A stretch of DNA of 64,000 nucleotides from Candidatus Marinacidobacterium sp. (lineage in GTDB: Bacteria > Acidobacteriota > Vicinamibacteria > Marinacidobacterales > Marinacidobacteraceae). Positions within the stretch are counted from its first letter, which is position 1; every line of letters begins with the position of its first letter. Below, piece after piece: positions 8,584-40,329 of this stretch. The translations under genes were made by a program, and so were the position numbers. Below the pieces are notes generated by a model. That model was not told where the DNA came from. It searched no databases and worked only from the letters and a program-made list of their open reading frames with translations. Location: the NCBI GenBank assembly GCA_965202845.1, contig OZ241856.1, forward strand, positions 1,155,886-1,219,885. The letters run 5' to 3'.

Positions 8584-10038
8584 ATGAAACGGGGCGAAGG
8601 GCGGTACAACGCCGTCGTCATCGGCGCCGGAACCGCCGGGCTGGTGACCGCGGCCGGGACCGCCGGACTCGGCGGGCGGACCGCGCTGGTCGAAGCGCGA
8701 CGGATGGGCGGGGACTGCCTGAACACCGGGTGCGTGCCTTCCAAGTCGCTGGTCTCCACCGCGAAGCAGATCCACCGGATCCGCAACGCGGAAGCCCACG
8801 GGCTGGACGCGAACGAACCGAAGTTCCGCTTCGAGCGGGTGTTCGAACACATGCGCGAACGTCGGGCGCACATCGCCCCCCACGACTCGGTGGAGCGATT
8901 CGAGGGACTGGGAGTGGACGTATTCCAGGCGCGGGCGCGCTTCACCGGACCGCGCGAAGTGGAGCTGGACGATGGAACCCGGCTGACCGGCGCCCACTTC
9001 GTGATCGCCACCGGCGCCAGCCCCCTGATCCCGGACATCCCCGGCCTCCGGGACGTCCCGTACTGGACCAACGAGACGTTCTTCGACGGCCAGGACGGCC
9101 CGCCCGATGCGTTGCTGGTGTTGGGAGGCGGTCTCGTCGGCTGCGAGTTGAGCCAGGTGATGCGGCGGCTGGGAGTCCGGGTGACCCTCCTGACCGACGT
9201 GGACCGGCTGCTTCCGCACGACGACCGGGAGGCCTCGCAGGTTGTCCTCGAGGCGTTCCAGGCGGAGGGCATCGAGGTTTTCTTCGGCTGCAAGGTTCGG
9301 AGGTTCACGCAATCCAGCGGCGCCATCACCGCCGAGGTCGAAACCGGGGGCGCGGTGCGCGAGGTCTCCGGCGACCGGCTTCTGGTGGCCGTCGGACGCT
9401 CGCCGAACGTGTCCGATCTCGGACTCGAGAAGGCGGGGGTGCGTTTCGACCCGCAGCAGGGAATCCCGGTGGACCGGAGTCTGCGGACCAACATCCCGCA
9501 CATCCACGCCTGCGGCGACGTGACGGCCGAACCCTTCCGCTTCACCCACGCCGCCGACCACCAGGCGCGGGTGGCGGTGCGGAACATCCTGCTGCCTCCC
9601 CCGTTTCCCCGCGCCCGGGTGGACTACAGATACCTGCCCTGGGTGACGTATGTGGACCCCGAAGTCGCCCATTTCGGCCTCCGGGAAGAGGACGCGGAGG
9701 AGCAGGGCGTCCCGGTGGACGTCCATCGGTATCCGATGAGCGACCTGGACCGGGCGATCACCGAAAATGCGACCCGCGGGTTCGTGAAGGTGGTCGCCGC
9801 CCGGGGGAAGGACCGCATCCTGGGGGCGACCGTGGTGGCGGATCGGGGCGGCGAAATCCTCCACCAGATCATGGCGGTGGCCCGGCAGGGAGGCGGACTC
9901 GGCGCGCTCTCCTCGATGATCCACGCCTATCCTTCCTGGGCGCAGGCGGCGCAGCGGGTCGGTGACGCCTGGAACCGGACCCGGCTGACGCCCCGGACCC
10001 GGGCCCTCTTCGAGTGGCTCTACCGGAGGCGGCGATGA
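8584..10038 (+). CDS. FAD-dependent pyridine nucleotide-disulfide oxidoreductase, class I (dihydrolipoyl dehydrogenase or mercuric-reductase-like). It has no C-terminal Cys pair.
   Basis: GxGxxG sequence VVIGAGTAGL. Redox-active disulfide motif GGDCLNTGCVPSK. The C-terminus carries HAYPSW (cf. the HAHPT interface motif). Confidence 0.8.
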   Translation: MKRGEGRYNAVVIGAGTAGLVTAAGTAGLGGRTALVEARRMGGDCLNTGCVPSKSLVSTAKQIHRIRNAEAHGLDANEPKFRFERVFEHMRERRAHIAPHDSVERFEGLGVDVFQARARFTGPREVELDDGTRLTGAHFVIATGASPLIPDIPGLRDVPYWTNETFFDGQDGPPDALLVLGGGLVGCELSQVMRRLGVRVTLLTDVDRLLPHDDREASQVVLEAFQAEGIEVFFGCKVRRFTQSSGAITAEVETGGAVREVSGDRLLVAVGRSPNVSDLGLEKAGVRFDPQQGIPVDRSLRTNIPHIHACGDVTAEPFRFTHAADHQARVAVRNILLPPPFPRARVDYRYLPWVTYVDPEVAHFGLREEDAEEQGVPVDVHRYPMSDLDRAITENATRGFVKVVAARGKDRILGATVVADRGGEILHQIMAVARQGGGLGALSSMIHAYPSWAQAAQRVGDAWNRTRLTPRTRALFEWLYRRRR

Positions 10039-10718
10039 AGCGCATCCTGGCGCTGGGAGCGGTCGTCGCGGTCCTCGTCGCCTCGTTCCTCCTGTTTCCC
10101 TTGGGAGCGTGGTTCGAGGCGGCGGCCCGCTGGGCGGAGGGACTCGGACCCACCGGTCTCGCCCTCTTCGCCGCCATCTACGCGGTCGCCACCGTCCTCA
10201 TGATCCCCGTCTCGGCGCTCACCCTGATCGGCGGCGCCGCCTTCGGCTTCGCCCTGGGGACGCTGAGCGTCTGGCTGGGCGCCGTCGTCGGGCTCGGGCT
10301 GGCCTTTCTGGTGGCCCGCCGGTTCGCCCGCGAGCGGGTGGCCGCCTGGCTGGAGAACCGTCCCGGCTTTCGGGCCATCGACCGGGCGGTCGCATCCGAG
10401 GGCTGGAAGATCGTGCTGCTCACCCGGCTCTCCCCGGCCTTCCCGTTCTCGCTCCAGAATTACGCCTACGGCCTCACCGGGGTCCCGTTTCCCGGATACC
10501 TGATCGCGTCGGCGGTCGGCATCCTGCCGGGAACCCTGCTCTACGTCTACATCGCGAGCGGCGTGGCGGGCGCCGTCTCCGGCGCGAGCGGCGCGCTCCA
10601 AATCGCGCTGTGGGCGGCGGGGCTGGTCGCCATCGCCCTGGTCACCGTCCGGATCACCCGGACCGCCCGGCGGGCGCTCCGGGAAGCCGGAGTGGACGCC
10701 GAATCGACGCCCGCATGA
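10035..10718 (+). CDS. TVP38/TMEM64 (DedA/SNARE-associated) family membrane protein
   Basis: Polytopic membrane protein with the DedA-type core (...LTRLSPAFPFSLQNYAYGLTGVPF...). The ATG overlaps the upstream stop (ATGA). Confidence 0.8.
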   Translation: MKRILALGAVVAVLVASFLLFPLGAWFEAAARWAEGLGPTGLALFAAIYAVATVLMIPVSALTLIGGAAFGFALGTLSVWLGAVVGLGLAFLVARRFARERVAAWLENRPGFRAIDRAVASEGWKIVLLTRLSPAFPFSLQNYAYGLTGVPFPGYLIASAVGILPGTLLYVYIASGVAGAVSGASGALQIALWAAGLVAIALVTVRITRTARRALREAGVDAESTPA

Positions 10719-13423
10719 CGTGGAAACGGCTCGCCGCCGCCGGAACCGCCCTCCTGCTGGTCAACTCCGGCTACCTGCTGGCCGCCCGGGAAGCCACCCT
10801 GCTCCACGCGGCGCAGATCCTGCTGCATCCGCTGCTGGCCCTGGCCGTCCTCAAGGTTCTCGCCTTCGATCACCGGCGGATCCGGGCGGCGCTTCGGGCG
10901 GAGCCGCTGCGGGCCGCCTTCCTCGGAACCGGCGCAGTCGTGGTCCTGAGCGGCGTCGGTCTCGTCATCCTGGGCGCCAACCGCCCGCTGCTGATCGCGC
11001 ATCTCGCCGCCGCCGCCGGATTCGCCCTGCTGCTGGCGCGCCGGCGGGTGTTGCTCGCTCCGCTTCTGGTCGCCGTCTCGATCCCGGTCGGCGGACTGCT
11101 CCGGGGCCTTCTTCCCGAAACCGAACCCGCGCTGAACGCCGGCCTGCCTCCCGCCGCCATGGCCGGCGAGGCGATGGGCGGCGCCTCCGGCCCCTTCTAC
11201 CCGTCGGCGGCGGCCACCGCGGACGGGGAGCTCATCCCGGCGGAGTTCTTCATGGGGAGCGACGCCTGCGGACGCTGCCACCAGGACATCACCCGGCAGT
11301 GGGAGGACTCCGCCCACCGGTTCGCCTCGTTCAACAACCCGTGGTACCGCCGCTCCATCGAGTACATGCAAAGCGTGGTCGGCGTCACCCCCTCCAAGTG
11401 GTGCGCCGGCTGCCACGACCACGCGGTCCTGTTCTCCGGCCTGATGGACAAACCGATCGAGGAAATCGTGGACTTGCCGGCGGCGAACGCCGGTCTGGGC
11501 TGCGTCTCCTGCCATGCGATCACCCGGGTCCGGAACACCATGGGGAACGCCGGCTTCGTGATCGAGTATCCGGAGATGAACGACCTGGCGTCGTCCGAAG
11601 ACCCGCTTCTCCGAACCCTCCATGACCTGGTGATTCACCTGGACCCGGAGCCGCACCGCCAGGCCTTCCTGAAGCCCATCCACCAGGGGGACAGCTCGGC
11701 CTTCTGCTCGACTTGCCACAAGGTGCACCTGGACGAACCGGTGAACCACTACCGCTGGCTGCGCGGGTTCAACAGCTACGACAACTGGCAGGCGAGCGGC
11801 GTCTCCGGCCACGGCGCCCGCTCCTTCTACTACCCCGAAGAGACCAGCACGTGCGCCGACTGCCACATGCCGCCGGTTCCCGGCGAGGATCCGGCGGCCC
11901 GGGACGGGCTGATCCGCTCGCACCGGTTCGCCGCCGCCAACACCGCGCTTCCGGTCCACTTCGGGCGCGACCAGCAACTCCAGGCGGTGCGCGACTTCCT
12001 GGCGGCCGGTCAGGTGACGGTGGACATCTTCGCGCTGACCCGGGGCGGCGGCGCGGCGCCGGACGATGAAGGCCCGGACCGGGAAGCCGCCGATCCCCTC
12101 ACCCTCGCCTCCACCTTCGCGGTGGGCGAGGAGGCGATGCCGGCGCCCGCCCGCTACCAGGCGGCCGGCCCCGCCGGCGCGCTCACCGCGCCGCTCGACC
12201 TGGAACGTCCGGCGCTCCAGCCCGGCGAGTCGGTGCGGGTGGACGTCGTGGTGCGGACCCGGAAGGTGGGGCACTTCTTTCCCAGCGGGACGGTGGACGC
12301 CCACGACGTGTGGCTGGAATTCCGGGCGGAGGACGCCTCCGGGCGCGCCTTCTTCTGGAGCGGCTTCACCGAGGGCGAGGACGCTCCGGTGGAGCCTTCG
12401 GCCCACTTCTTCCGCTCGCTGATGCTGGACGAGCGCGGAAACCCCATCAACAAGCGAAACGCCTGGGCGGCGCGGAGCGCGCTGTACGTCACCCAGATCC
12501 CGCCGGGAGCGGCCCATACGGTCCGCTACCGGGTCCGGATTCCGGAGGACGCCGTCGGGCCGGTGAAGCTGACCGCGCGCCTCAACTACCGGAAATTCGC
12601 CTGGTGGCACACCCAGTGGGTCTTCCGGGGGACGCCGCTCAGCGACGGCGAGGTCGCGCCCGGCTTTGACGACCGCACCTGGGTGTTGGATCCCGACCGG
12701 GAAGCTCCCGATGTGCCGATCGTCACCATGGCGTCGGCGGAGCTGGAGCTTCCGGTGGGCGAGGCGGTTCCCCCGGCGGAGGGGGACGCCCGGGACGTCG
12801 CGCTCCGGTTCAACGACTACGGAATCGGGTTGCTGCTCCAGGGCGACCTGCGGGGAGCGGAGGCGGCCTTCCAGCGGGTGGCCGAGCTGGACCCGTCCTT
12901 CCCCGACGCCCCGGTCAACCTGGCGCGGGTCCGAATCCAGGAGGGGGATCCCGAGGGCGCGCGGGACGCCGCCGATGCGGCGCTGGCGCTTTCGCCCCGG
13001 CTGCCGCGGGCGCTCTTCTTCCGGGCGATGGCGCTGAAGGCGCTGGGGCGCTACGACGACGCGCTCCGGGATCTCCGGGTGGTCGCGGAGGCCCACCCCG
13101 GCGACCGGGTGGTGAACAACCAGATCGGCCGCCTCCTCTTCCTGAAGCGGGAGTACGCGGAGGCGGCGGCCGTCCTCGAGCGGACGCTGCGGATCGACCC
13201 GGAGGATCTGGAGGCCCACTACAACCTGATGCTGGCGGCGCGCGGCCTCCGGGACGCCGAAGGCGCCGCCCGGCACCAGGAGCTCTATCTGCGCTTCAAG
13301 GCGGACGAGTCGGCGGACGCCACCGGCGGGGACTACCGGCGAACCCACCCCGAGGACAACAACGAGCGGCTTCCGATCCACGAGCACCGGAACGGGCTCG
13401 ACGGCGCCTCTCCCGGCCCATAG
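10715..13423 (+). CDS. membrane-anchored pentaheme c-type cytochrome with a C-terminal tetratricopeptide-repeat (TPR) domain
   Basis: About four N-terminal TM helices. Five CXXCH motifs (CGRCH, CAGCH, CVSCH, CSTCH, CADCH). C-terminal TPR-like repeats (...ALKALGRYDDALRDL..., ...EAHYNLMLAARGL...). The ATG overlaps the DedA stop (ATGA). Confidence 0.75.
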   Translation: MTWKRLAAAGTALLLVNSGYLLAAREATLLHAAQILLHPLLALAVLKVLAFDHRRIRAALRAEPLRAAFLGTGAVVVLSGVGLVILGANRPLLIAHLAAAAGFALLLARRRVLLAPLLVAVSIPVGGLLRGLLPETEPALNAGLPPAAMAGEAMGGASGPFYPSAAATADGELIPAEFFMGSDACGRCHQDITRQWEDSAHRFASFNNPWYRRSIEYMQSVVGVTPSKWCAGCHDHAVLFSGLMDKPIEEIVDLPAANAGLGCVSCHAITRVRNTMGNAGFVIEYPEMNDLASSEDPLLRTLHDLVIHLDPEPHRQAFLKPIHQGDSSAFCSTCHKVHLDEPVNHYRWLRGFNSYDNWQASGVSGHGARSFYYPEETSTCADCHMPPVPGEDPAARDGLIRSHRFAAANTALPVHFGRDQQLQAVRDFLAAGQVTVDIFALTRGGGAAPDDEGPDREAADPLTLASTFAVGEEAMPAPARYQAAGPAGALTAPLDLERPALQPGESVRVDVVVRTRKVGHFFPSGTVDAHDVWLEFRAEDASGRAFFWSGFTEGEDAPVEPSAHFFRSLMLDERGNPINKRNAWAARSALYVTQIPPGAAHTVRYRVRIPEDAVGPVKLTARLNYRKFAWWHTQWVFRGTPLSDGEVAPGFDDRTWVLDPDREAPDVPIVTMASAELELPVGEAVPPAEGDARDVALRFNDYGIGLLLQGDLRGAEAAFQRVAELDPSFPDAPVNLARVRIQEGDPEGARDAADAALALSPRLPRALFFRAMALKALGRYDDALRDLRVVAEAHPGDRVVNNQIGRLLFLKREYAEAAAVLERTLRIDPEDLEAHYNLMLAARGLRDAEGAARHQELYLRFKADESADATGGDYRRTHPEDNNERLPIHEHRNGLDGASPGP

Positions 13424-13430
13424 CCCCGCG

Positions 13431-15610
13431 TCAAGCCCGCTTCCGCAGCCGGAGCGCGTTCAGGACGACGGAAAGCGACGAGAGCGCCATCGCCAGCGCC
13501 GCCGCCTCCGGAGCGATCAGCACCCCGGCGAGCGGGTGGAGGACGCCCGCCGCCAGCGGGATCGCCGCCAGGTTGTACCCGAAGGCCCAGCCGAGGTTCT
13601 GGCGGATCACCCGCACCGCGCGTCGGGCGGTCCGGATGGCGTCGCCGGCAAGCCGGAGGTCCGCCCGCATCAGCGTGACCCCGGAGGCGGCGCGGGCGAT
13701 GTCGGCGCCGCTGGCGAGGGCGATGCCCACATCGGCGTGCGCCAGCGCCGGAGCGTCGTTGAGGCCGTCCCCCACCATCGCCACCGGTCCGAAGTGGGCG
13801 CGCAGGCGATCCAGCTCGGCGCGCTTCCCTTCCGGACGCAGCTCCCCCATCGACTCGGTGAAGCCGAGATCCCGCCCGACCGCGGCGACCGCTCCCGAGG
13901 CGTCGCCGGAAAGGAGCGCCACCGGAAACCCCTCCTCCCGGAGCCGGCGCACCGCCGCCGCCGCCTCCGGGCGCGGCTGGTCGCGGAACCCCACCGAGCC
14001 GATCCACTCCCCGTTCCGGAACGCGTGCAGCCGCGCCGAGGCGTCGCCCGCTTCCCCCGGATCCCAGCCCGGCAGGACCCGATGGCTTCCGACCCGCATG
14101 GATTCCCCGGTCGGAAGGGTCGCGGAGACCCCGCGTCCGGGAAGGGCCTCGAACCGCTCGGGGCGCACTGGACGAATTCCCTGCGCTTCGGCGAACCGCA
14201 CCAGCGCCAGCGCCAACGGATGCTCGGAGACCGATTCAGCGGACGCGGCGAGCGTCAAGAACTCGTCTTGCGACACCCCCTGGGCGGTCCGCACCTGGAG
14301 CGCTTCGGGTTCGCCCGAAGTGACCGTTCCGGTTTTGTCGAAAGCCACCGCCCGCACCGAAGCCAGCCGTTCGATGGCCTCCCCGTTCCGGAACACGATG
14401 CCCCGCCGGGCCGATTCGCCGGTGGCCACCACCACCGCGATCGGGGCCGCCAGCCCGACCGCGCAGGGACAGGCGACCACCACCACCGCGATCGCGCGCG
14501 CCAGCGCGAACCCGGCGCCGGCGCCGGCGAGCAGCCAGCCCAGCAGGGTCAGCACGCCGATCGCCATGACCGCGGGCACGAAGACCGACGCCACCCGGTC
14601 GGCGATCCGCTGGAGCGGGATTTTCTCGGACTGCGCCTGCCGCACCGCGGCGGCGATGCGGGCGAGCGTGCTCTCCGGCGCGGCGCGAAGCGTCTCGATT
14701 TCGATCCAGCCGCTTCGGTTCAGGGCGCCGCCCGCCACCGTCTCGCCCGCGACCCGGTCCACCGGCGCGCTCTCCCCGGTAAGGAGCGACTCGTCGATCG
14801 CCGCGCCTCCCTTCAGGATGCGGCCGTCGAGCGGAATCCGTTCTCCCGGACGCACGCCCAGCACGTCTCCCACCCGCACCTCGTCCAGCGGAACCTCCTC
14901 GGACTCGCCGTCCTCCCCCCGGATGCGCCGCGCCGTCTCCGGCGCCAGCAGCAGGAGCTTGCGCAGCGCGTCGGACGCCCGCCCGCGCGCCCGGGACTCG
15001 AGCCACCGACCGAAGGTCACGATGGCGACCAGCATGGCGGCGACGTCGAAGAACAGGACGTCCGCCGCGCCGAAGCCCAGGAGATGCGCCATCGACGCGC
15101 CGTAGGCGGCGCCGGCGCCCAGACCGATCAGGCTGTCCATCCCGTAGGAGCGACGCCGGAAGTCCAGAACCAGCGCCTTCAGGTAGCCCCGACCCAAGCC
15201 GAAAAGAACAGCGGTGGCGCACAGGAACTGAAGCAGCATCCCGGACTGGCCGGGAAGCGCCCCGCTCATCCCGGCCGCCATGCCGAAGAGCGCCAGCAGC
15301 AGTCCCAGGACGACCCGGGACGTCCGGGGACCGTCGTCCGCCGAAAAGGCGACGCTCCGCTCCGAATCGGACCACTCCAGCCGATACCCGGCGCGTTCCA
15401 CCGCACTGACCAGCGCCGGACGCATGGCGCCGGAAACGAGACCTTCGTCCAGGGTCACCGCGAGGGCGCCGGTGGCCAGATTGGCGTTCGCCGCAGCCAC
15501 TCCCGGTGTGTCGAGCACGGCGCGCTCCACCCCGGCCACGCACCCGGCGCAGTGCATGCCGACGACCCGGCCGACGACCCCGCCCACGACACGACTGGCG
15601 CGAGTCTCCA
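13431..15610 (-). CDS. copA: heavy-metal (copper) translocating P1B-type ATPase
   Basis: N-terminal heavy-metal-associated domain GMHCAGCVAGVE. Motifs CPC, DKTGT and GDGLNDAPAL. Start at METRAS. Confidence 0.85.
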
Positions 15611-15656
15611 TCGGCAGGCGGCATCGTACCGCGTCCCGGCGTAGAATCGCCGCGCC

Positions 15657-16169
15657 GTGCCGGTTCTGCCCATCCTCCGCTACGGGGCGGAGCAGCTCAC
15701 CACCCCCTCGGCGCCGGTGGAGGACTTCGAGCGGGACTGGACGCCGCTGGTGGAAGACATGATGAGCACCATGTACGCGGCCCCCGGAGTCGGGCTGGCG
15801 GCGCCCCAGATCGGCGTCGGCATGCGCCTCATCGTGATCGACATCACGGTCGGGGAGAAGCCGGACAACCGGATCGTGATGGCGAACCCGGAAATCCTGC
15901 GATCCGAAGGCGTCCAGCACGAGGAGGAGGGGTGTCTTTCGGTGCCGGACTATTCGGGCGTGACCCGCCGTCCCGCCTGGGTCCGGGTCCGCGGCTTCGA
16001 CCTCAGGGGGGAACCGTTCGAGATGGAGGGCGAGGGGCTGCTGGCCCGCGCGTTCGCCCACGAAATCGACCACGTGGACGGGCGGCTCTTCCTGGACCGG
16101 CTGGGAATGCTCAAGCGCGACCTGATCCAGCGCAAGATTCGTCGCCGGATGCGCCGCGGCGACTGGTAG
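15657..16169 (+). CDS. def: peptide deformylase
   Basis: GVGLAAPQIG, EGCLSVP and HEIDH motifs. GTG start. Confidence 0.9.
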   Translation: MPVLPILRYGAEQLTTPSAPVEDFERDWTPLVEDMMSTMYAAPGVGLAAPQIGVGMRLIVIDITVGEKPDNRIVMANPEILRSEGVQHEEEGCLSVPDYSGVTRRPAWVRVRGFDLRGEPFEMEGEGLLARAFAHEIDHVDGRLFLDRLGMLKRDLIQRKIRRRMRRGDW

Positions 16170-16186
16170 ACCCCCCCCTTCCGGTC

Positions 16187-17176
16187 ATGGCCGGTTCGCC
16201 TCTGGACGTCGTGTTCTTCGGGACGTCCGGCTTCGCCGCGCCTTGTCTCCGGGCGCTCCATGCCGAGCACCGGGTGGCGGCGGTGGTCACCCAGCCCGAC
16301 CGCCGGGCCGGACGCGGGAGGAAGCTCCTGCGCAGCCGGGTCGGAGAGCTGGCGGACGAATTGGGAATCCCGCTGGAGCAACCGGAGCGGCTGCGGCGGA
16401 GGGCGGCGGCGGAGCGGATCGCCGCGATCCCCGCCGACTGCCTGGTGGTCGCCGATTATGGGCAGATCCTCCCCGCCTCCCTGCTGCGGGCGCCCCGGCT
16501 CGGCGCCGTCAACGTGCACGCCTCGCTGCTCCCGGAGCTCCGGGGCGCGGCGCCGGCCCGCTGGGCGGTGGCGCGGGGATTGCATCGCACCGGGGTGAGC
16601 ACCATGCTGATGGACGCCGGACTCGACACCGGCCCCGTGCTCTTGCAGCAAGAAGTCGCCATCGATCCCCGCGAGACGGCGGACGAGCTGCTGGCGCGCC
16701 TCGCGCCGCTGGGCGCCTCCCTGCTGCTCGAAACCCTCGCCGGACTCCAGGCGGGGACGCTCCAGCCAATTCCCCAGGACGAAACCCGCGCCACCTGGGC
16801 GCCGCTGGTCGTCCGGGCGGACACCGTGCTCGACTGGCGCGCCCCGGCCGAAACCCTTGCGAATCGGGTCCGCGCCTTCGCTCCGGCGGTCGCCGTGCTC
16901 GCCGGGGGACCGCCGACGCGGGTCCAGGTGCACGAAGCGCTCGCCCTGGAGGGAACCGCCGACGAACCCGGCGCCTTTCGGAACGTCGGCTCGCCCCGCC
17001 GCCCGATTCTGGCGGTCGGTTGCGGGGACGGCGCCGCGCTCGGGATCCGGAGCGTTCAGTTCCCCGGCGCGCGGCGGATGACCGCGGCCGAAGCCCTGCG
17101 GGGACGGCGGCTGCCCCCGGCGGGGCGCTTCCTCGGCAAGGAGGACGCGGTCGCCCACCTCGGCTGGAACAAGTGA
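16187..17176 (+). CDS. fmt: methionyl-tRNA formyltransferase
   Basis: Formyl-transferase N-domain (VVFFGTSGFAAPCL...VVTQPDRRAGRG...NVHASLLPELRGAAP) plus C-terminal domain. Located directly after def. Confidence 0.9.
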   Translation: MAGSPLDVVFFGTSGFAAPCLRALHAEHRVAAVVTQPDRRAGRGRKLLRSRVGELADELGIPLEQPERLRRRAAAERIAAIPADCLVVADYGQILPASLLRAPRLGAVNVHASLLPELRGAAPARWAVARGLHRTGVSTMLMDAGLDTGPVLLQQEVAIDPRETADELLARLAPLGASLLLETLAGLQAGTLQPIPQDETRATWAPLVVRADTVLDWRAPAETLANRVRAFAPAVAVLAGGPPTRVQVHEALALEGTADEPGAFRNVGSPRRPILAVGCGDGAALGIRSVQFPGARRMTAAEALRGRRLPPAGRFLGKEDAVAHLGWNK

Positions 17177-18027
17177 AACGGTTTCTTCTTTTCGCCGTCG
17201 GGACGCTCCTCCTGCTGGGGGCCGGACTCGCCCTCTGGTCGGCGTCCCGCCCCCCGCTCCCGCGCCACCCGTTCTTCTCCGAGCCGGCGCGCAATTACGC
17301 CCACCGCGGCGGGAACGTCGCGGCTCCCGAAGCCACCCTCCCGGCCTTCGCCGCCGCCATCGAAGCGGGCGCCGACGTTCTCGAGTTCGACGTCCGGCTG
17401 ACCGCCGACGGAGTCCTCGTGGTGATCCACGACGCCACCGTGGACCGCACCACCGACGGCGCCGGACCGGTCCGCGACATGACGCTCGCCGAGCTCCGGC
17501 GCTGGAACGCCAGCAGCGGACGCCCCTCGGATCCCCCGACCCGGATTCCCACCCTCGAGGAGGTCTTCGCGGCGCATCCGGAGCGCCGCATGGCGATCGA
17601 GATGAAGACGCCGGAGACGGCGGCGCCGCTCTGCCGGTCCCTGGCCGCAGCAGGACGCCAGACCCGCACGCTGGTCGCCGCCTTCGACGCCGGCGCCCTG
17701 GAAGCCTTCCGCACCGCGTGTCCGGACGCGCCGACGGTGGCTTCGATGTCCGAAGTGGCGACCTTCCTCGTCTTCGCCCACCTGCGGATCGAGGGATTGC
17801 TGCGCCCGGAGGCGAACGCCCTGATGGTTCCCGAAACCTTCGGGCCGGTCCGGGTGGTCACCGGGCGGATCCTGGAAGCGGCCGCGCGCCTCGGGCTTCC
17901 GGTCGCGGTCTGGACGGTGAACGACCCGGACGCCATGGAGCGGCTCCTCGATTTGGGAGTGGACGGCATCCTCACCGACGACCCCGGCGCGCTGGCGCGG
18001 ATCCTCGCCGATCGGCGTGGCGGGTGA
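17173..18027 (+). CDS. glycerophosphodiester phosphodiesterase family protein
   Basis: N-terminal signal/TM. GDPD motifs HRGG...APE(A)TL.AF..A...GAD.LEFDV.LTADGVLVVIHD. The GTG start overlaps the fmt stop (GTGA). Confidence 0.8.
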   Translation: MKRFLLFAVGTLLLLGAGLALWSASRPPLPRHPFFSEPARNYAHRGGNVAAPEATLPAFAAAIEAGADVLEFDVRLTADGVLVVIHDATVDRTTDGAGPVRDMTLAELRRWNASSGRPSDPPTRIPTLEEVFAAHPERRMAIEMKTPETAAPLCRSLAAAGRQTRTLVAAFDAGALEAFRTACPDAPTVASMSEVATFLVFAHLRIEGLLRPEANALMVPETFGPVRVVTGRILEAAARLGLPVAVWTVNDPDAMERLLDLGVDGILTDDPGALARILADRRGG

Positions 18028-19400
18028 CCGGAACCCCTCCGGGGAGTCCGGCCCGCCTGCTCGCCTTCCGGGTTCTGCTCGCACTGGAGTCCGGTTTCGG
18101 TCCGGAACGGCGGCGGGCGGCGGGAACCCCGGATTCCCTGCTGGCCCGGTTCGAGGCGGACATGCAGGTCGGGGAGGCGGATCGCGGGCTGGCCCGGGAG
18201 CTGGTCTTCGGCGCGCTCAAGGGGAAGCGCCTGCTGGACCACACGCTCGACTGCTTTTCCCGTCGGCCGGTGCGCAAGCTCGAACCCGCGCTCCGCGTTC
18301 TGCTTCGGATCGGACTCCACCAGCTCCGGACGCTGACGCGCATCCCCCCGCACGCCGCGCTCTTCGAAACCGTGCGGATCGCGCGGATGCGGATGCGGCC
18401 GGGCGCCGCCCGCCTGGTCAACGCGGTTCTGCGCGCCTACCTGCGCGCCGACCATGCGGGGCCCTCCCCGGAGGGCGATCCGGACCTCTGGATGCGGGTG
18501 GGTCTGTCCCATCCGGACTGGATGGTGGACCGGCTGGTTCGGCGGCTGGGCGAAGCGGGCGCCCGGGCCCGGATGGAAGCGAACAACTGCCCGCCGCAGA
18601 CGTTCCTGCGGGTCCGCCGGGACGTCGACCTCCCGTCCGTCCAGGAGCGCCTGCTGGAGGACGGGGTTCCCACCGAAGTCTTCCCGATGGCGCCCCGCTG
18701 CCTGCTGGCGCGCGCCGGGAACCCGCTTCGGACGGCGGCGCATCGGGAAGGACGGGTTCACATCCAGGACGCCGGCTCCCAGCTCGTCGGCTGGCTGCTG
18801 CCGCTCCACGACGCCCGCCGGGCGCTCGACGGGTGCGCGGCGCCCGGCGGCAAGGCGACGATCCTCGCCGAACGCTTCCATCCGCGCCGGGTGGTGGCGG
18901 CGGACCTGCGCCCGGCACGGATGCGGCTTCTGGAGCGGATCGCGTCCCGCCTGCAGGCGGACAATCTGCATCGGGTCGTCGCCGATGCGGCGTCCCCGCC
19001 GTTTTCTCCCGGTTCGTTCGACCGGATCCTGCTGGACGTCCCCTGCAGCGGCCTCGGCACCCTGGCGCGCAACCCGGACCTGAAATGGACATCTTCGCCG
19101 GAACGGGTGCGTCGCCTGGCGCGAACCGAAGCCCGACTAGCGAGCGCGGCGGTCCGCCTGCTGGCGCCCGGCGGTCTCCTCCTGTACGCCACCTGTTCGC
19201 TGGAGCCGGAGGAGACCGAAGACGTGGTCGCCGGCCTCCTCGATGCGGCGCCCGGCCTGGAACGAGTGTCCCTGGGGGCGGAGCTGCCGCCGGAATCCCG
19301 GCGTTTTCTCGATCCGGACGGAACCCTCCGCATCCTCCCCGAGTCTTCGGGAACCGACGGCTACTTCGCCGCGCTCCTGCGCCGCCCGGCGCTGTCCTAA
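18024..19400 (+). CDS. rsmB: 16S rRNA (cytosine967-C5)-methyltransferase RsmB/Sun
   Basis: NusB-like N-domain followed by a SAM-dependent MTase with the catalytic motifs ...DGCAAPGGKAT...LDVPCSGLGTLARNPD...YATCSLEPEE. The GTG start overlaps the GDPD stop. Confidence 0.85.
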   Translation: MTGTPPGSPARLLAFRVLLALESGFGPERRRAAGTPDSLLARFEADMQVGEADRGLARELVFGALKGKRLLDHTLDCFSRRPVRKLEPALRVLLRIGLHQLRTLTRIPPHAALFETVRIARMRMRPGAARLVNAVLRAYLRADHAGPSPEGDPDLWMRVGLSHPDWMVDRLVRRLGEAGARARMEANNCPPQTFLRVRRDVDLPSVQERLLEDGVPTEVFPMAPRCLLARAGNPLRTAAHREGRVHIQDAGSQLVGWLLPLHDARRALDGCAAPGGKATILAERFHPRRVVAADLRPARMRLLERIASRLQADNLHRVVADAASPPFSPGSFDRILLDVPCSGLGTLARNPDLKWTSSPERVRRLARTEARLASAAVRLLAPGGLLLYATCSLEPEETEDVVAGLLDAAPGLERVSLGAELPPESRRFLDPDGTLRILPESSGTDGYFAALLRRPALS

Positions 19401-23685: not shown

Positions 23686-25079
23686 CCGCTGCCGAACGCG
23701 GTCTCTTCAAGTCCTACGACATCCGGGGACCGTCTCCCGTTCCCCTCTCGGCGGCGCTCGCCGGGCGGATCGGGGAAGCGTTCGCCCATTGGCTCGGCGG
23801 CGGCGTGGTCGGCGTGGGCCGGGACATGCGGAAGACCAGCCCCGCGCTGGCGCGGGAATTCGCCGCCGGGCTGCGGCGCGGCGGCGCATCGGTCGCCGAC
23901 TGCGGCATGCTCGCCACCGACGCGATGTGGTTCGCGGTGCAAGAGCGCCAGCTCGACGGCGGCGCGATGGTCACCGCATCCCACAACCCGCCGACCGACA
24001 ACGGGATCAAGCTGGTGGCGCGAAACGCCGCGCCGGTCTTCCAGGGCAATGGTCTCCCGCGCATCCAGGAGCTGGTGGACGCCCCGGAACTCCCCGCCGG
24101 AGCGAAACCGGCGGCGGGCGCCGTCCAGCGCCTGGACATCGCAGACGCCTACCTTCGCTTCCTTGAGGAGCAGATCCGAATCCGGCCCTTTCCCTCGCTC
24201 CGGGTCGTCCTGGATGCTGGCAACGGCATGGGGGGGCTGATGGCGGAGCGGTTGTTCGCCCGGCTTCCCGGCGCGTGGATCCCCATGCATTTCCGCCCGG
24301 ACGGCGCCTTTCCGAACCACGGGGGCAACCCGCTGCAACCGGAAAACCGCGCCGAGCTGGCCGCCAGGGTGCGCGCCGAGCGGGCCGACTTCGGGGTTCT
24401 CTGGGACGGCGACGCCGACCGCTGCGCCTTCGTTGACGACCGGGGCGCCTTCGTGCCCGGCGACTTCGCCACCGCCCTTCTGGCGCCCGCCGAGATCGCC
24501 CGCGCCCCGGGCGGGGCGGTGGTCTTCGATCTCCGCTCCTCCCGCGCGGTCCCGGAGGCGATCCTTGAAGCGGGCGGCCGCCCCTGCCCCAACCGGGTCG
24601 GCCACGCCTGGATGAAGCAGCGCATGCGCAAGGAGGACGCCTGCTTCGGCGGCGAACTCAGCGGCCACTTCTACTTTCCGGCTACCGGCCACGCCGACAA
24701 CGCGCTCCTTCCCGTCCTGCGCATGGGGGAGCGGATCGCCGCCGCCGGACGGCCGCTTTCGGAACTGGCGGACGCGCTCCGGCGCCGCCACTTCACCCTG
24801 GACGAGATCAGCATCCGCGTCCCCTCCCCCGCCGCCGCCCTCTTGCGAATCTGCGCCGCCTTCCCGGACGCGAAGCCGGATCGCACCGACGGGGTGACGC
24901 TGGATTTCCCCGATTGGCGCTTCACCCTGCGCCCCTCGAACACCGAACCGGTCCTCCGGCTGACCCTGGAAGCCTTCCGGCCCGGCCTCGCCGAGGCCTG
25001 CCGGGACCGCATCCTCGAGTTGCTCCGGGAATCCGCCGATGCGGACGGCTACAATCCCGCCCCGGTCGTGCGGGTGTAG
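23658..25079 (+). CDS. phosphomannomutase/phosphoglucomutase
   Basis: FKSYDIRG..., the active-site Ser motif TASHNP, and the GDGDADR and GGELSGH motifs. GTG start at 23658, or at 23673. Confidence 0.85.
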   Translation: MSLPDVPHLTAAERGLFKSYDIRGPSPVPLSAALAGRIGEAFAHWLGGGVVGVGRDMRKTSPALAREFAAGLRRGGASVADCGMLATDAMWFAVQERQLDGGAMVTASHNPPTDNGIKLVARNAAPVFQGNGLPRIQELVDAPELPAGAKPAAGAVQRLDIADAYLRFLEEQIRIRPFPSLRVVLDAGNGMGGLMAERLFARLPGAWIPMHFRPDGAFPNHGGNPLQPENRAELAARVRAERADFGVLWDGDADRCAFVDDRGAFVPGDFATALLAPAEIARAPGGAVVFDLRSSRAVPEAILEAGGRPCPNRVGHAWMKQRMRKEDACFGGELSGHFYFPATGHADNALLPVLRMGERIAAAGRPLSELADALRRRHFTLDEISIRVPSPAAALLRICAAFPDAKPDRTDGVTLDFPDWRFTLRPSNTEPVLRLTLEAFRPGLAEACRDRILELLRESADADGYNPAPVVRV

Positions 25080-25142
25080 CTCAGTCGGTAGAGCACGAGC
25101 TTCCCAAGCTCGGGGTCGCGGGTTCGAGCCCCGTCGCCCGCT
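25070..25142 (+). tRNA. tRNA-Gly (anticodon CCC)
   Basis: Manual cloverleaf: acceptor GCGGGTG/CGCCCGC; D-arm GCTC/GAGC; anticodon stem CGAGC/GCTCG with loop TTCCCAA; T-arm GCGGG-TTCGAGC-CCCGT; discriminator T. No encoded CCA. Confidence 0.85.
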
Positions 25143-35915: not shown

Positions 35916-38195
35916 GTGTTCCGACGTTCCGGTCTCTGCATCCTCCTCCTCGCCGCCGCCTGCGGCGGAGGCGTCGATCCGATCCGGCCGCTGAACGTGG
36001 TGGTGGTGACCCTGGACACCCTCTCCGCCCGGCACCTGAGCCCCTACGGCAGCGAGCGGATCCGCACTCCGGCCTTTGAGCGGGTCGCCGCCGAGGGCGT
36101 CCTCTTCGAGCAGGCCACCGCGAGCGTTCCGCTCACCCTGCCCTCGCACGCCACCATGTTCACCGGAACCCACCCGATGTTCCACGGAGTCCGGGACAAC
36201 GGCGGCTACCCGGTCCCGGACTCGGCGGAGACGCTGGCCGAAACGCTCGCCGCCGCCGGGTATCGCACCGGCGGGTTCATCGGCGCCTTCGTCCTGGATT
36301 CGCGCTGGGGGCTGGACCAGGGCTTCGAGCGCTATTTCGACGACTTCGACTTCGGGGAATTCGAATCCTTCGGGCTGGACACCGTCCAGCGCCCCGGCAA
36401 CGAGGTGCTGGACGCCGCCCTCGACTGGATGGGGCAGGTGCGGGAGGAGCGGTTCTTCGCCTGGATTCATTTCTACGACCCGCACTGGCCCTACGAGCCG
36501 CCGGAGCCTTGGCGCTCCCGGGTCGGCGACTACCGGGAAGCCCGCTACGACAGCGAGGTGCTGTTCACCGACTTTCTGGTGGGGCGGCTGCTCGACTGGC
36601 TGGACGCGAACGCCCTCGTTCGGGACACCCTGCTGGTTCTGATCGCCGACCACGGGGAGAGTCTGGGGCGGCACCAGGAGACCGCCCACGGGTTCTTCAT
36701 CTACGACGCCTCGATGCAGGTGCCCTTCCTGGTGCGCGCCCCCTACCGCCAGATCGCCGGCGGCCGGCGGGTGGCCGCCCAGGTGCGGGGCGTGGACCTG
36801 ACGCCCACCGTCCTGGACCTGGTGGGGGTGGGCATCCCGGAGGCGGTCCAGGGCGAGAGCCTGCTGCCGCTGCTGGACGGGTCGGTGGAGGACCTGGGGC
36901 TTTGGGCCTACAGCGAGAGCTTCTATCCCCGGAACCACTACGGCTGGGCGCCGCTCCACGCGCTGCGTAACGGGTTGCTGCACTTCATCTCCGCCCCCCG
37001 CCCGGAGATCTACGAGATCGCGGCCGACCCCGGGCAGCGGCGGAATCTGGCCGGCGAACGCCCCGGACAGCTGGAGCAGCTGGAGGCGCGGCTGCGTCGC
37101 ATGATGGCCGGATACGCATCGGGAGTGGAACGCCCGGCGCAGATGGTGGACGAGGAGACGCGCGCCCGGCTGGCGGCGCTCGGCTACCTGGGCGGAACCG
37201 CGCCGGTTCCGGTCCGGGACGAATCCGACCTCGCCGACCCCAAGGACAAGGTGCATCTCTACAACCTGCTGAAGCTGGCGGGAACCGATTCGAGCGAGGG
37301 CCGGATCGACGAGGCGATGGCTTCGGTGCGCCGGGCGCTCGCCGAGGATGCGGGCATCCTGGAAGCCCACCTGATCCTCGGCAACCTGCACCGGAAGCGA
37401 CGGGCTTGGGACGAGGCCATCGCCGCCTACCGGGACGCGCTGGCGCTGGACGAGAACTACAAATCGGCGGTGCTGGGGCTCGCCGACGCCTACCGGCTGG
37501 CCGGGCGCTCCGCCGAAGCGGAGGCCGGCTACCGACGGCTGCTGGAGCTGGACCCGAACGACAACATCGGCGCCTTCCACCTCGCCGGCATCCTTGCCGG
37601 GCGGGAGAATTGCGACGGCGCGCTCGAAACGCTGGCCCGGCTGGAGGGCGCCGGAGAGATGCAGGCGCCGGCCCGGAACCTGAAGGGCGAGTGCCTGCTC
37701 AGCCTGGAGCGCCTCGACGAGGCCGAAATCGAATTTCGGCTAGCGCTCGAACGGGACGAACGGCTTTCCGAAGCCTGGTACAACCTCGCGCTGCTCCACG
37801 AGGAGCGGGGCGAAGCCGATGCGGCCCTCCGCGCCTACGAGGCCCGCCTGGAGCAGGCGCCCCGGGACTTCCGCTCGCACTTCAACCTCGCCCGGCTGTT
37901 CGGCGCCCTGGGGGACCGGGAGCGCATGGAGGCCGGCTTCCGCGACGCCATCGCCTACAACCCCGAATTCGCAGTCGGGCATCTCCATCTCGCCAAGGCG
38001 CTTCTCGACCGGGGCGCCCTCGAGGAGGCGGAGGACATGGCGCGCCGGGGAAACGCGCTCGACCCGCCGCCCGACATGGCGCCCTTCGGCTACTTCGTCC
38101 TCGCCGACATCTACAGCCGCCTGGGGAGGCGCGCCGACGCCGAGCGCGCGTTCCGCCGAGGCGAAACCCTGCGCCGCCAAGGAGAACAACCATGA
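35916..38195 (+). CDS. sulfatase family lipoprotein with a C-terminal TPR domain
   Basis: Lipobox LLLAAACGG. The sulfatase N-domain has TLDTLSARHL but lacks a C/SxPxR formylglycine motif, so it is more like the sulfatase/phosphoglycerol-transferase superfamily, with LIADHGE. About 300 aa of TPR repeats follow at the C-terminus. GTG start. Confidence 0.8.
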   Translation: MFRRSGLCILLLAAACGGGVDPIRPLNVVVVTLDTLSARHLSPYGSERIRTPAFERVAAEGVLFEQATASVPLTLPSHATMFTGTHPMFHGVRDNGGYPVPDSAETLAETLAAAGYRTGGFIGAFVLDSRWGLDQGFERYFDDFDFGEFESFGLDTVQRPGNEVLDAALDWMGQVREERFFAWIHFYDPHWPYEPPEPWRSRVGDYREARYDSEVLFTDFLVGRLLDWLDANALVRDTLLVLIADHGESLGRHQETAHGFFIYDASMQVPFLVRAPYRQIAGGRRVAAQVRGVDLTPTVLDLVGVGIPEAVQGESLLPLLDGSVEDLGLWAYSESFYPRNHYGWAPLHALRNGLLHFISAPRPEIYEIAADPGQRRNLAGERPGQLEQLEARLRRMMAGYASGVERPAQMVDEETRARLAALGYLGGTAPVPVRDESDLADPKDKVHLYNLLKLAGTDSSEGRIDEAMASVRRALAEDAGILEAHLILGNLHRKRRAWDEAIAAYRDALALDENYKSAVLGLADAYRLAGRSAEAEAGYRRLLELDPNDNIGAFHLAGILAGRENCDGALETLARLEGAGEMQAPARNLKGECLLSLERLDEAEIEFRLALERDERLSEAWYNLALLHEERGEADAALRAYEARLEQAPRDFRSHFNLARLFGALGDRERMEAGFRDAIAYNPEFAVGHLHLAKALLDRGALEEAEDMARRGNALDPPPDMAPFGYFVLADIYSRLGRRADAERAFRRGETLRRQGEQP

Positions 38196-40318
38196 ACATC
38201 CACCGCTTCGCCCCCATCCTGCTCGCTGTCGCGCTCGGTTGCGGCGGCTCGAACAACCCCACCACGGAGTCCATGTCGGAAAACCCTCTCCTCACCGAAA
38301 GCGCGCTGTTGCATCGCCTGCCGCCGTTCGACCGGATCCGGGACGAGCACTACCTCCCGGCGTTCGAGCGGGGCATGGCCGAGGACCTCGCCGAAGCGGA
38401 GCGGATCGCCGCGCTCGACGAGCCGCCCACCTTCGAGAACACGATCACGCCGATGGAGAGCGGTTCGCCGCTGCTGTCCCGGGTCTCGCGGGTGTTCTTC
38501 GGCCTTTCGTCGGCGCACACCAACGACGCCATGAACGCGATCCGGGAGGAGATCTCGCCGAAGCTCGCCGCCCACGCCGACCGCATCCTGCTGAACCCGG
38601 ACCTGTTCGCACGGGTCCGGGCCCTCCACGACGCCCGGCATGACAGCGGCCTCGACGCCGAGCAGGTCCGGCTGGTCGAGGAATACCACCGGAACTTCAT
38701 CCGCGCGGGCGCCAATCTCTCCGAGGAGCAGAAGGAGCGGATGCGCGCAATCAACTCCCGCCTCGCCTCGCTCGGCGCTTCCTTCACCCGGAATGTTCTG
38801 GATGAAGTGAACGCCTCGGCGGTGGTGGTGGACACCGAGGCGGAACTTGACGGACTGGACGAAGGCGAAATCGCCGCCGCCGCCGAAGCCGCCAGGGCCC
38901 GGGATCTGGAAGGCAAGTTCGTGATTCCGTTGCTGAACACCAGCGGCCAACCGGCGCTTGCGAGCCTCACCGACCGGGACCTTCGCGAGCGGATCCTGCG
39001 CGCCTCGCTCGCCCGCGGCAGCAGCGGCGGCGAGTATGACAACCGGGAGATCATCACCGAAATCGCCCGACTCCGGGCGGAGCGGGCGGCCCTGCTCGGC
39101 TATCCGCATCACGCGGCGTTCGTTCTGGAGGAGCAGACGGCCGGCACGGTGGAGGCGGTTCACGAGCGGCTGGCGGCGCTCACCCCGGCGGCGGTCCGGA
39201 ACGCCCGCCGGGAGGCGGCCGCATTGGAACGGGCAGCCCGCGCCGAGGGAGCGGACATCGAGATCGCCGCCTGGGACTGGCAGTTCTACACCGAGAAGCT
39301 GCGCGCCGAGCTCTACGACTTCGACGCCGCGGCGCTCCGCCCCTACTTCGAGCTGCACAGCGTGCTGGAAAACGGCGTGTTCCACGCGGCGAACCTGCTT
39401 TTCGGGCTGACCTTCGAGGAGCGGCCGGAGCTGCCGACCTACCAGGAGGACGTGCGGATCTGGGAAGTCTTCGACCACGACGGCTCTTCGCTCGGGCTTT
39501 TTCTCGGCGACTTCCACGCCCGCCCGTCCAAGCGCGGCGGCGCCTGGATGAACGCCTACGTTCCGCAGTCGGGGCTTTTGGGGACTCGTCCGGTGGTGGC
39601 GAACCATCTCAACATTCCCGAGCCGCCGGAGGGCGAGCCGACCCTGATGACCTTCGACGAGGTCATCACCCTGTTCCACGAGTTCGGGCACGCCCTGCAC
39701 GGGCTGTTTTCGGATGTGCGCTACCCGACCTTCGCCGGCACTTCGGTTCCCCGCGACTTCGTGGAGTTCCCCTCCCAGGTGAACGAGATGTGGGCGACCT
39801 GGCCGGAAGTGCTCCGCAACTACGCAGTGCACTACCAGACCGGCGAGCCGATCCCCGGCGACCTGCTGGAGCGGGTGCTGGAGAGCCAGACCTTCAACCA
39901 GGGGTTCGCCACCACCGAATACCTGGCCGCCACCCTGCTGGACCTGGCGTGGCACGAACGGGCGGTCTCCGAAATCCCGACCGCCGAGCAGGCGATCGCC
40001 TTCGAGGAGAACGCGCTGGAAGCCGCCGGAGTCGCGTTTCCGCCGACGCCTCCCCGCTACCGCAGCACGTACTTCTCCCACATCTGGGGAAGCGGCTATT
40101 CCGCCGGGTACTACTCGTACATCTGGAGCGAGGTGCTGGACGCCGACAGCGTGGAGTGGTTCCGCGAGAACGGCGGCCCCACCCGCGAAAACGGGGACCA
40201 CTTCCGGGCGACCCTGCTCTCCAGGGGCGGATCGGTGGATGCGATGGAGCTGTTCCGCGCCTTCCGCGGCCGCGACGCCGACATCGCCCCGCTGCTGAAG
40301 CGCCGGGGACTGGAGTAG
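38192..40318 (+). CDS. M3 family metallopeptidase (peptidyl-dipeptidase Dcp / oligopeptidase A-like), lipoprotein
   Basis: AAGGAG RBS before the ATG. Lipobox LAVALGCGG. HEFGH zinc motif. Overall M3A architecture. Confidence 0.85.
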   Translation: MNIHRFAPILLAVALGCGGSNNPTTESMSENPLLTESALLHRLPPFDRIRDEHYLPAFERGMAEDLAEAERIAALDEPPTFENTITPMESGSPLLSRVSRVFFGLSSAHTNDAMNAIREEISPKLAAHADRILLNPDLFARVRALHDARHDSGLDAEQVRLVEEYHRNFIRAGANLSEEQKERMRAINSRLASLGASFTRNVLDEVNASAVVVDTEAELDGLDEGEIAAAAEAARARDLEGKFVIPLLNTSGQPALASLTDRDLRERILRASLARGSSGGEYDNREIITEIARLRAERAALLGYPHHAAFVLEEQTAGTVEAVHERLAALTPAAVRNARREAAALERAARAEGADIEIAAWDWQFYTEKLRAELYDFDAAALRPYFELHSVLENGVFHAANLLFGLTFEERPELPTYQEDVRIWEVFDHDGSSLGLFLGDFHARPSKRGGAWMNAYVPQSGLLGTRPVVANHLNIPEPPEGEPTLMTFDEVITLFHEFGHALHGLFSDVRYPTFAGTSVPRDFVEFPSQVNEMWATWPEVLRNYAVHYQTGEPIPGDLLERVLESQTFNQGFATTEYLAATLLDLAWHERAVSEIPTAEQAIAFEENALEAAGVAFPPTPPRYRSTYFSHIWGSGYSAGYYSYIWSEVLDADSVEWFRENGGPTRENGDHFRATLLSRGGSVDAMELFRAFRGRDADIAPLLKRRGLE

Positions 40319-40329
40319 TCGTACGATTC

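Follow-up and report, generated by a model that had tools for sequence, protein, structure and literature searches.

A membrane-anchored pentahaem cytochrome with a tetratricopeptide repeat domain, from a large unnamed family centred on Acidobacteriota

The chromosome of Candidatus Marinacidobacterium sp. (GenBank assembly GCA_965202845.1, contig OZ241856.1) encodes an inner-membrane multihaem cytochrome that ends in a block of tetratricopeptide repeats (TPR). We analysed the gene within a window of 64,000 nucleotides (positions 1,155,886 to 1,219,885 of the forward strand; positions given below are those of the window), in which it is the only open reading frame (ORF) with two or more CXXCH motifs. 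Uninterrupted translation of ORF 10715-13423 (+) yields a protein of 902 residues that is 100% identical to a database entry (P0001), and the G+C content at its third codon positions (GC3), 0.84 in a window of about 71% G+C, is typical of coding sequence. The start codon overlaps the stop codon of the preceding gene in the form ATGA. The ORF can be extended upstream in frame to position 10109; since close homologues begin at the methionine used here, this longer version is not the real start. Neither sigma-70-like promoters nor meaningful terminators were found around the cytochrome gene.

The protein consists, in order, of five transmembrane (TM) helices, five CXXCH haem motifs, a variable linker, a haem-free beta-sandwich of about 200 residues, five TPR repeats and a conserved C-terminal tail (Table 1), and it holds the haem, immunoglobulin (Ig)-like beta-sandwich and TPR domains in the periplasm. 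An earlier note on this DNA had drawn the same overall outline, with a hydrophobic N terminus, five haems, a non-haem middle part and TPR. The AlphaFold model used here was built on 74 homologues and reached a mean predicted local distance difference test score (pLDDT) of 79.4 and a predicted template modelling score (pTM) of 0.81; a second run, made on residues 1-695 with a 14-sequence alignment, gave a pLDDT of 47 and was discarded.

Table 1 Features of the cytochrome gene and of the two genes preceding it, in window coordinates
Feature	Coordinates	Strand	Residues	Remarks
Upstream gene 1, FAD (flavin adenine dinucleotide)-dependent pyridine-nucleotide-disulfide oxidoreductase (MerA/Lpd-like)	8584..10038	+		Pfam, NCBIfam
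Upstream gene 2, DedA/VTT-domain membrane protein	10014..10718	+		Pfam VTT_dom, E = 3.4e-26; stop codon overlaps cytochrome start
Whole gene, membrane-anchored pentahaem cytochrome with TPR domain	10715..13423	+	1-902	Stop codon TAG at 13421-13423
N-terminal membrane domain, five TM helices	10721..11104	+	3-23, 29-51, 66-86, 90-109, 114-130	N-in, C-out
His38 of TM2, kept in nearly all members; candidate for axial ligation or a quinone site	10826..10828	+	38	Invariant in alignments A1, A2 and A5
His96 in TM4, nearly universal; second candidate ligand	11000..11002	+	96	Membrane depth similar to His38, periplasmic side
Periplasmic, mostly alpha-helical pentahaem domain	11132..12049	+	140-445	Pfam, PDB profile, alignments
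Haem motif CGRCH	11267-11281	+	185	
Haem motif CAGCH	11402-11416	+	230	
Haem motif CVSCH	11501-11515	+	263	
Haem motif CSTCH	11705-11719	+	331	
Haem motif CADCH	11852-11866	+	380	
Variable, low-confidence linker	12053..12166	+	447-484	pLDDT <50; length variation in alignment
Haem-free Ig-like beta-sandwich	12170..12784	+	486-690	
Five TPR repeats from ten helices	12788..13309	+	692-865	
Conserved C-terminal tail with YRRxHPxDNNERxxIHEH	13310..13420	+		IHEH at 13376-13387

The five TM helices are given by both hydropathy analysis and the AlphaFold model, in which their pLDDT is about 80-94. Lysine and arginine residues are concentrated at the N terminus (K4, R5), in loop 2 (four residues) and in loop 4 (two to three), with one and none in the alternate loops, and this pattern of positive charges therefore places the N terminus in the cytoplasm and the haem domain in the periplasm, where the haem domain of a c-type cytochrome must reside. 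Four to five hydrophobic segments precede the first haem in 90 of the 101 representatives with a complete N terminus. The several helices that the earlier note had seen in the first ~130 residues are thus a conserved five-helix bundle, and not the cleaved signal peptide against which that note had proposed a check. A soluble periplasmic cytochrome with such a peptide, or an ORF with an artefactual N terminus or a low-complexity C terminus, is scarcely credible: the in-frame extension to 10109 is the only feature that could be cited for it and no supporting evidence was found, whereas the five hydrophobic helices with their alternating charged loops are well modelled, helix 1 carries the conserved residues N17, Y20 and L21 and is followed by no AXA cleavage site, the start methionine is common to close homologues, and the TPR block scores above the Pfam gathering thresholds and is also found by structure searches.

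All 10 cysteines of the protein sit in its five CXXCH motifs, which are exactly the five haem sites (CGRCH, CAGCH, CVSCH, CSTCH and CADCH) listed in the earlier note. The number of CXXCH motifs expected from composition is 0.004, and more than one never occurred in 100,000 shuffles. The five motifs are invariant in the 74 homologues, the first having the form CX4CH in many family members. In the same 74 sequences, the additional histidines H201, H314, H338 and H403 of the haem domain are invariant, and His236 is invariant in alignment A1 and at least 90% conserved in A2. There would therefore be enough well-conserved extra histidines, five in all, for bis-His ligation of all five haems, an arrangement that, as judged from residue conservation, would be more in keeping with an electron wire than with a catalytic haem left open. 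Pfam recognizes Cytochrome_C554 over residues 184-267, that is, haems 1-3 (E = 1.8e-8), and the TM and beta domains fall outside all Pfam families.

The region following the haems, which the earlier note took for a non-haem middle domain of about 250 residues, is indeed free of haem motifs but is not a single domain, being divided into the linker and the beta-sandwich. The otherwise variable linker contains a conserved island, ASTFAVGEE (residues 465-473, nucleotides 12107-12133), with an invariant FxxGEE core; this short segment could be a docking peptide, perhaps one that binds in the TPR groove of the same protein. Invariant motifs of the beta domain are VVRTRxVGHFFPxGTxD (containing His520), AHF (His564), INKRNAW and YRKFxWW, and the loop around His520 is the most conserved stretch of the protein outside the haem motifs. 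A profile of the beta domain alone retrieved nothing meaningful from the PDB.

The C-terminal repeats are 34-residue helix-turn-helix units by curated models as well as by structure, and what the earlier note would have taken as a refutation, a low-complexity artefact, can be set aside in favour of a genuine TPR domain. Following the last repeat, there is an invariant stretch that the earlier note did not mention, FKADE...YRRxHPxDNNERxxIHEH (residues 861-891, nucleotides 13295-13387), in which N882, N883, H889, E890 and H891 are invariant in the 74 sequences. A site for a metal, or one close to a haem, might be made up by the HxH motif of this tail together with the invariant His520 and His564 of the beta domain. 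TPR domains such as those of CcmI/CycH or NrfG would suggest a different role, in which the protein would be a factor for cytochrome c maturation or handling that chaperones apocytochromes and would not be part of a redox complex. A match to TPR_CcmH_CycH (PF23914), a family listed for many of the homologues, points in that direction (E = 8.5e-4), but at 19.6 bits against a cut-off of 42 it lies far below threshold and reflects generic TPR similarity; considering also that the protein has five haems itself and a conserved Ig-like domain, and that no ccm genes occur in the window or in the conserved neighbourhood, we regard such a role as very improbable. Elsewhere in the window, a 759-residue protein (35916-38195, +) has a sulfatase domain and, at its C terminus, a long TPR region, and is the second enzyme-TPR fusion there.

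To assess the breadth of the family, the top 120 homologues were taken from a collection of 5.8 billion proteins. Apart from one fragment of 625 residues, almost all of them are near full length (832-1,120 residues, 51-100% identity, 84-100% coverage) and have the same Pfam set; homology is full length and collinear, running from the TM helices through the five haems, the beta domain and the TPR to the tail, with 50-87% identity for nearly all. An exhaustive HMMER search with residues 1-690, that is, with the TPR domain left out (E <= 1e-3), yielded 2,897 clusters at 50% identity, 726 of them below 1e-30, and in 113 of the 150 best clusters the haem, beta and TPR regions are present in that order. 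Furthermore, in a scan of one genome per species, with at least 570 confirmed loci, relatives of this architecture were found to be encoded in at least 570 species-level genomes. The best 80 of these loci belong almost entirely to Acidobacteriota (Vicinamibacteria, Blastocatellia, Terriglobia, Thermoanaerobaculia, Bryobacterales), and the closest among the loci listed come from metagenome-assembled genomes of marine Vicinamibacteria and from 'Ca. Marinacidobacterium'. Conservation is strong, with at least 50% identity between classes. The search for homologues sharing the cytochrome-TPR fusion, proposed in the earlier note, thus succeeded with almost all of the top 120, and these numbers contradict the view expressed there that such fusions are uncommon: in a large unnamed family centred on Acidobacteriota, the fusion is the rule. 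A second multihaem-TPR protein occurs in the homologous locus of relatives. Where the homologues are named at all, their source annotations read 'tetratricopeptide repeat protein', 'PilF' or 'TadD', and literature searches for this architecture returned nothing relevant and no paper describing the family.

The genomic neighbourhood of the family was compared across the 73 related loci having enough sequence. In 53 of these, a gene encoding a protein of about 560 residues with FG-GAP_3 and UnbV_ASPIC domains starts no more than 700 bp downstream of the cytochrome on the same strand, and an FG-GAP/UnbV_ASPIC gene lies within 6 kb downstream in 61. It is often followed by a gene for a TPR plus FG-GAP protein (~1,170 residues) or, in the marine clade, for the second multihaem-TPR protein. 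The neighbours are annotated as 'CRTAC1 family protein', possess a signal peptide, match human CRTAC1 (9ETN) with E = 1.7e-17 and are more conserved than the cytochrome, with 63-89% identity among the top 120 hits. Likeness to the CRTAC1 family (human cartilage acidic protein 1, 9ETN; UnbV / enediyne E4) is a property of this neighbour and not of the cytochrome; no published link of bacterial CRTAC1-family proteins to cytochromes was found in the literature searches. The scaffolded periplasmic redox complex envisaged in the earlier note is plausible in the light of this gene directly downstream, which supports it indirectly, although the linkage is absent from the window itself.

For comparison with proteins of known structure, a profile of the non-TPR part was used, as searches of the PDB with the full-length profile were swamped by TPR hits. 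The best match among all PDB sequences was the pentahaem cytochrome c552 of Thermochromatium tepidum (5ZE8, E = 5.9e-4), restricted to the region of haems 1-3, and the next was MccSep of Geobacter (9WT8, E = 0.056), around haem 1. The invariant HFFPxGT loop of the beta domain aligns below threshold with HAMPTGA of c552. NCBIfam NF040886, the equivalog model for the MccSep (ExtKL) family, matches the protein around haem 1 with E = 5e-7, its 28.6 bits falling far short of the cut-off of 250. Five c-type haem motifs are gathered in one N-terminal domain; the helical cap that binds the haems leads into an Ig-like beta-sandwich, and this arrangement can be superimposed on 5ZE8. The core made up of these two parts shows the 'cap and stem' fold known from the pentahaem cytochrome (PHC) group, which includes T. 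tepidum c552 and, by published comparison, ExtKL/MccSep of Geobacter. What was called a large non-haem middle domain is thus the stem, Ig-like in fold, of a cytochrome of the PHC type, with a linker before it. Cytochrome c552, to which no function has been assigned, ExtKL and Gsu2801 have been grouped as the PHC family (PMC11976967), and PtdA, a PHC-type protein, has been reported to be encoded next to porins (bioRxiv 10.1101/2023.11.21.568154). The pentahaem plus Ig-like or beta-sandwich unit of the protein studied here is thus that of a group with members in cable bacteria, Gsu2801 and ExtKL in Geobacter, and PtdA. Published members, however, are soluble, fused to truncated haemoglobins or encoded beside porins, whereas the Marinacidobacterium protein is anchored by five conserved TM helices in place of a mere signal peptide and carries a TPR domain besides. 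By comparison, c552 (5ZE8) is a soluble protein of about 435 residues without the five-helix membrane domain, the TPR domain and the conserved C-terminal tail, and the variable linker between the two core domains is likewise extra relative to it. Three features set the protein apart from every PHC described so far, namely the membrane anchor of five helices, the TPR domain together with the tail, and the linkage to CRTAC1-like genes.

MccSep, or ExtKL, of Geobacter sulfurreducens is a multihaem selenoprotein polysulfide reductase, a soluble homotetramer built of a helical cap with five haems and a stem of Ig-like fold, in the active site of which Cys239, a ligand of haem 2, is met by the selenocysteine Sec325 reaching in from the Ig-like domain (bioRxiv 10.1101/2025.11.18.688581). 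Five CXXCH motifs and the succession of haem cap and Ig-like stem are common to MccSep and our protein, which has the TM and TPR modules in addition; the present family is mainly found in Acidobacteriota, whereas that of MccSep is found in Desulfobacterota and Nitrospirota. Tests for the features of MccSep showed that the protein has no selenocysteine or cysteine in the Ig-like loop at the position of U325, no cysteine free for a His/Cys haem 2 and no in-frame UGA. Because no cysteine lies outside the haem motifs and there is no UGA codon, it cannot use MccSep chemistry.

The shared fold nevertheless provides the main rival to a function in electron conduction, namely that the cytochrome is itself a catalytic reductase or oxidase of the PHC type, a membrane-tethered analogue of MccSep for which the TPR domain and the CRTAC1-like protein are accessory. 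Catalysis would take place between haem 2 and a loop of the Ig-like domain, where the invariant GHFFPxGTxD (His520) would stand in for the Sec loop of MccSep, and a site for metal or substrate might draw on His564 and the IHEH tail. In fold the protein agrees with c552 and, by published comparison, with MccSep, and the catalytic Sec325 of the latter does come from the Ig-like domain, beside haem 2; still, the equivalence of His520 with Sec325 is putative, and the haem-ligating Cys239 and the Sec/Cys325 that define MccSep have no counterpart here. Similarly, the prominence of the His520 loop, with its sub-threshold likeness to HAMPTGA of 5ZE8, and the invariance of His889 and His891 in the tail speak for catalysis, whereas the five extra conserved histidines, sufficient for bis-His ligation at every haem, speak against it. 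On balance, we consider a catalytic cytochrome unlikely, albeit the most serious competitor of an electron conduit.

Mean column identity in the TM region is 34% across 24 diverse members, with Tyr20 (TM1), His38, Gly87 and His96 invariant; among 99 diverged representatives of 50%-identity clusters, position 38 is histidine in 96 and position 96 in 95. With helix limits taken from the model and the topology deduced above, the periplasmic helix end is about 9 residues away from His38 and about 6 from His96, and Tyr20 is also near that surface. A profile of the TM region alone had no match among PDB sequences, and Pfam contains no significant family for it: below threshold, Ni_hydr_CYTB (prokaryotic cytochrome b561) was hit with E = 0.24 in 3 of the 24 members and DUF2231 with E = 0.022 in one. 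Dihaem b anchors such as those of the Pfam Ni_hydr_CYTB type have four conserved histidines, and the domain studied here, with two conserved histidines rather than four and no Pfam match, is not an anchor of the Ni_hydr_CYTB or cytochrome b561 type. Nor does it conform to NapC/NirT/CymA, which have a single N-terminal TM helix and four haems as opposed to five and five; no NapC/NirT family was among the hits in Pfam and NCBIfam scans of the protein.

CymA/NapC/NirT, ImcH and CbcL are inner-membrane multihaem quinol oxidoreductases that pass electrons between the quinone pool and periplasmic partners, and in MsrQ one bis-His haem b feeds a periplasmic enzyme. A membrane module tied to periplasmic haems offers a functional analogy with the present protein, although there is no detectable sequence relationship and the haem count, helix count and periplasmic fold differ. 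With its pair of conserved histidines and its attachment to a haem wire, the five-helix bundle may harbour either a quinol site or one haem b with bis-His ligation. The opposite possibility is that the domain is a passive anchor, with the histidines serving folding or oligomerisation, and that the cytochrome exchanges electrons with soluble periplasmic carriers and not with the quinone pool. This would agree with the lack of significant likeness to known quinol- or haem-b-binding membrane families and with the conservation of just two histidines against the four of dihaem b anchors. However, one helix would suffice for anchoring, whereas five helices and both histidines have been kept across clusters with about 25-35% identity in the TM region, and a merely structural role of the domain appears improbable to us.

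Taken together, we favour, with a probability of roughly 0.4, the interpretation that the protein is a membrane-anchored electron conduit linked to quinol or haem b, in which five c-type haems form a wire to a partner in the periplasm that the TPR domain docks, probably the CRTAC1-like propeller. The TM bundle would be the redox entry module, where His38 (TM2) and His96 (TM4), lying like Tyr20 (TM1) toward the periplasmic end, would either build a quinol site or hold one b-type haem as its ligands. The quinone pool would supply electrons, which would pass through this module and along the five bis-His c-haems. By means of the TPR domain and the conserved tail, the protein would bind a periplasmic partner responsible for the chemistry, most probably the CRTAC1-like propeller protein. 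Passive anchoring, a maturation factor and a soluble cytochrome are, in this order, progressively less compatible with the data.

Several considerations weigh against the electron conduit. We infer the cofactor, the donor, the acceptor and the interaction, and so every functional step. The case for a haem b or quinol site comes down to two conserved histidines, because the TM domain is without a significant Pfam or PDB match. A pure wire leaves four invariant histidines unexplained, two in the beta domain (His520, His564) and two in the tail (His889, His891); as far as their conservation can tell, these could constitute a catalytic or metal site within the cytochrome itself. Finally, no CRTAC1-like sequence was found anywhere in the 64-kb window, so that the downstream partner is missing at the very locus studied, and in the two closest genomes inserted genes separate the CRTAC1-like gene from the cytochrome. 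The stretches to compare are 12704-18982 of locus L081 and 12706-13342 of locus L082; before the CRTAC1-like gene resumes, one relative has an inserted MazE/PemK toxin-antitoxin pair and another has four reverse-strand genes. With the partner split off in close genomes and absent from the window, the two genes need not be tightly co-expressed. In this clade, the junction that follows the cytochrome stop codon (13424-13431) is a hot spot of rearrangement. An orthologue of the partner (P0287), which shares 89% identity with its counterpart in the closest relative, is encoded on a contig of 2,864,726 bp, equal in size to the contig encoding the cytochrome, which indicates that the CRTAC1-like partner has probably been relocated rather than lost; the gene was probably moved away from the cytochrome by rearrangement and kept elsewhere on the chromosome.

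Other neighbours are less consistently associated with the family. In the window, the cytochrome is the last of three overlapping co-directional genes, preceded by the oxidoreductase and the DedA/VTT protein (Table 1). This string recurs in 7 of the 80 loci, all from one marine Vicinamibacteria clade, and also in L081 and L082; having been found in so few loci and in a single clade, the oxidoreductase-DedA pair was rejected as a family-wide partner. A convergent copper/heavy-metal P-type ATPase gene ends 8 bp past the cytochrome stop codon and was likewise rejected as a functional neighbour, being convergent and absent from all related loci. Among the same 80 loci, 17 carry on the same strand, about 2 kb upstream of the cytochrome, a gene encoding CarboxypepD_reg and an outer-membrane barrel like that of TonB-dependent receptors (L012, 2906-5878), and 13 have an amidase gene directly upstream.

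The remaining genes of the window are housekeeping genes. A low-GC island (39790-43400; 0.60 versus ~0.71) contains an ORF for a GmrSD-type restriction endonuclease (PF03235 + PF07510, +) and a transposase of the ISL3 family (42070-43311, -), and is probably a horizontally acquired defence or insertion sequence (IS) insertion. An ORF of 558 residues (17295-18971, -) has coding-like GC3 and no Pfam or NCBIfam match, and a tRNA gene (25070-25142, +) is the only Rfam match in the window.

The family brings together a functionally obscure pentahaem fold, that of c552 and MccSep, a membrane module matching no known family and a docking domain. As a tentative generalization, which we think more likely wrong than right, its members could be the membrane subunit of an unrecognised redox complex of Acidobacteriota, composed of a new five-helix, two-histidine module with one haem b or a quinol site, a pentahaem wire fed by it and a secreted CRTAC1-like propeller docked by the TPR domain and tail. 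If true, this would give bacterial CRTAC1/UnbV proteins their first biochemical role and, in a phylum dominant in soil and sea, would connect the quinone pool to the periplasm by a new route. Should the link between cytochrome and CRTAC1 be functional, it would offer a testable handle on both families; even if it is not, the annotation of the homologues needs correction, as a TPR label has concealed a multihaem cytochrome. Soils and sediments count Acidobacteriota among their most abundant bacteria, and the periplasmic electron-transfer machinery of this phylum is poorly known.

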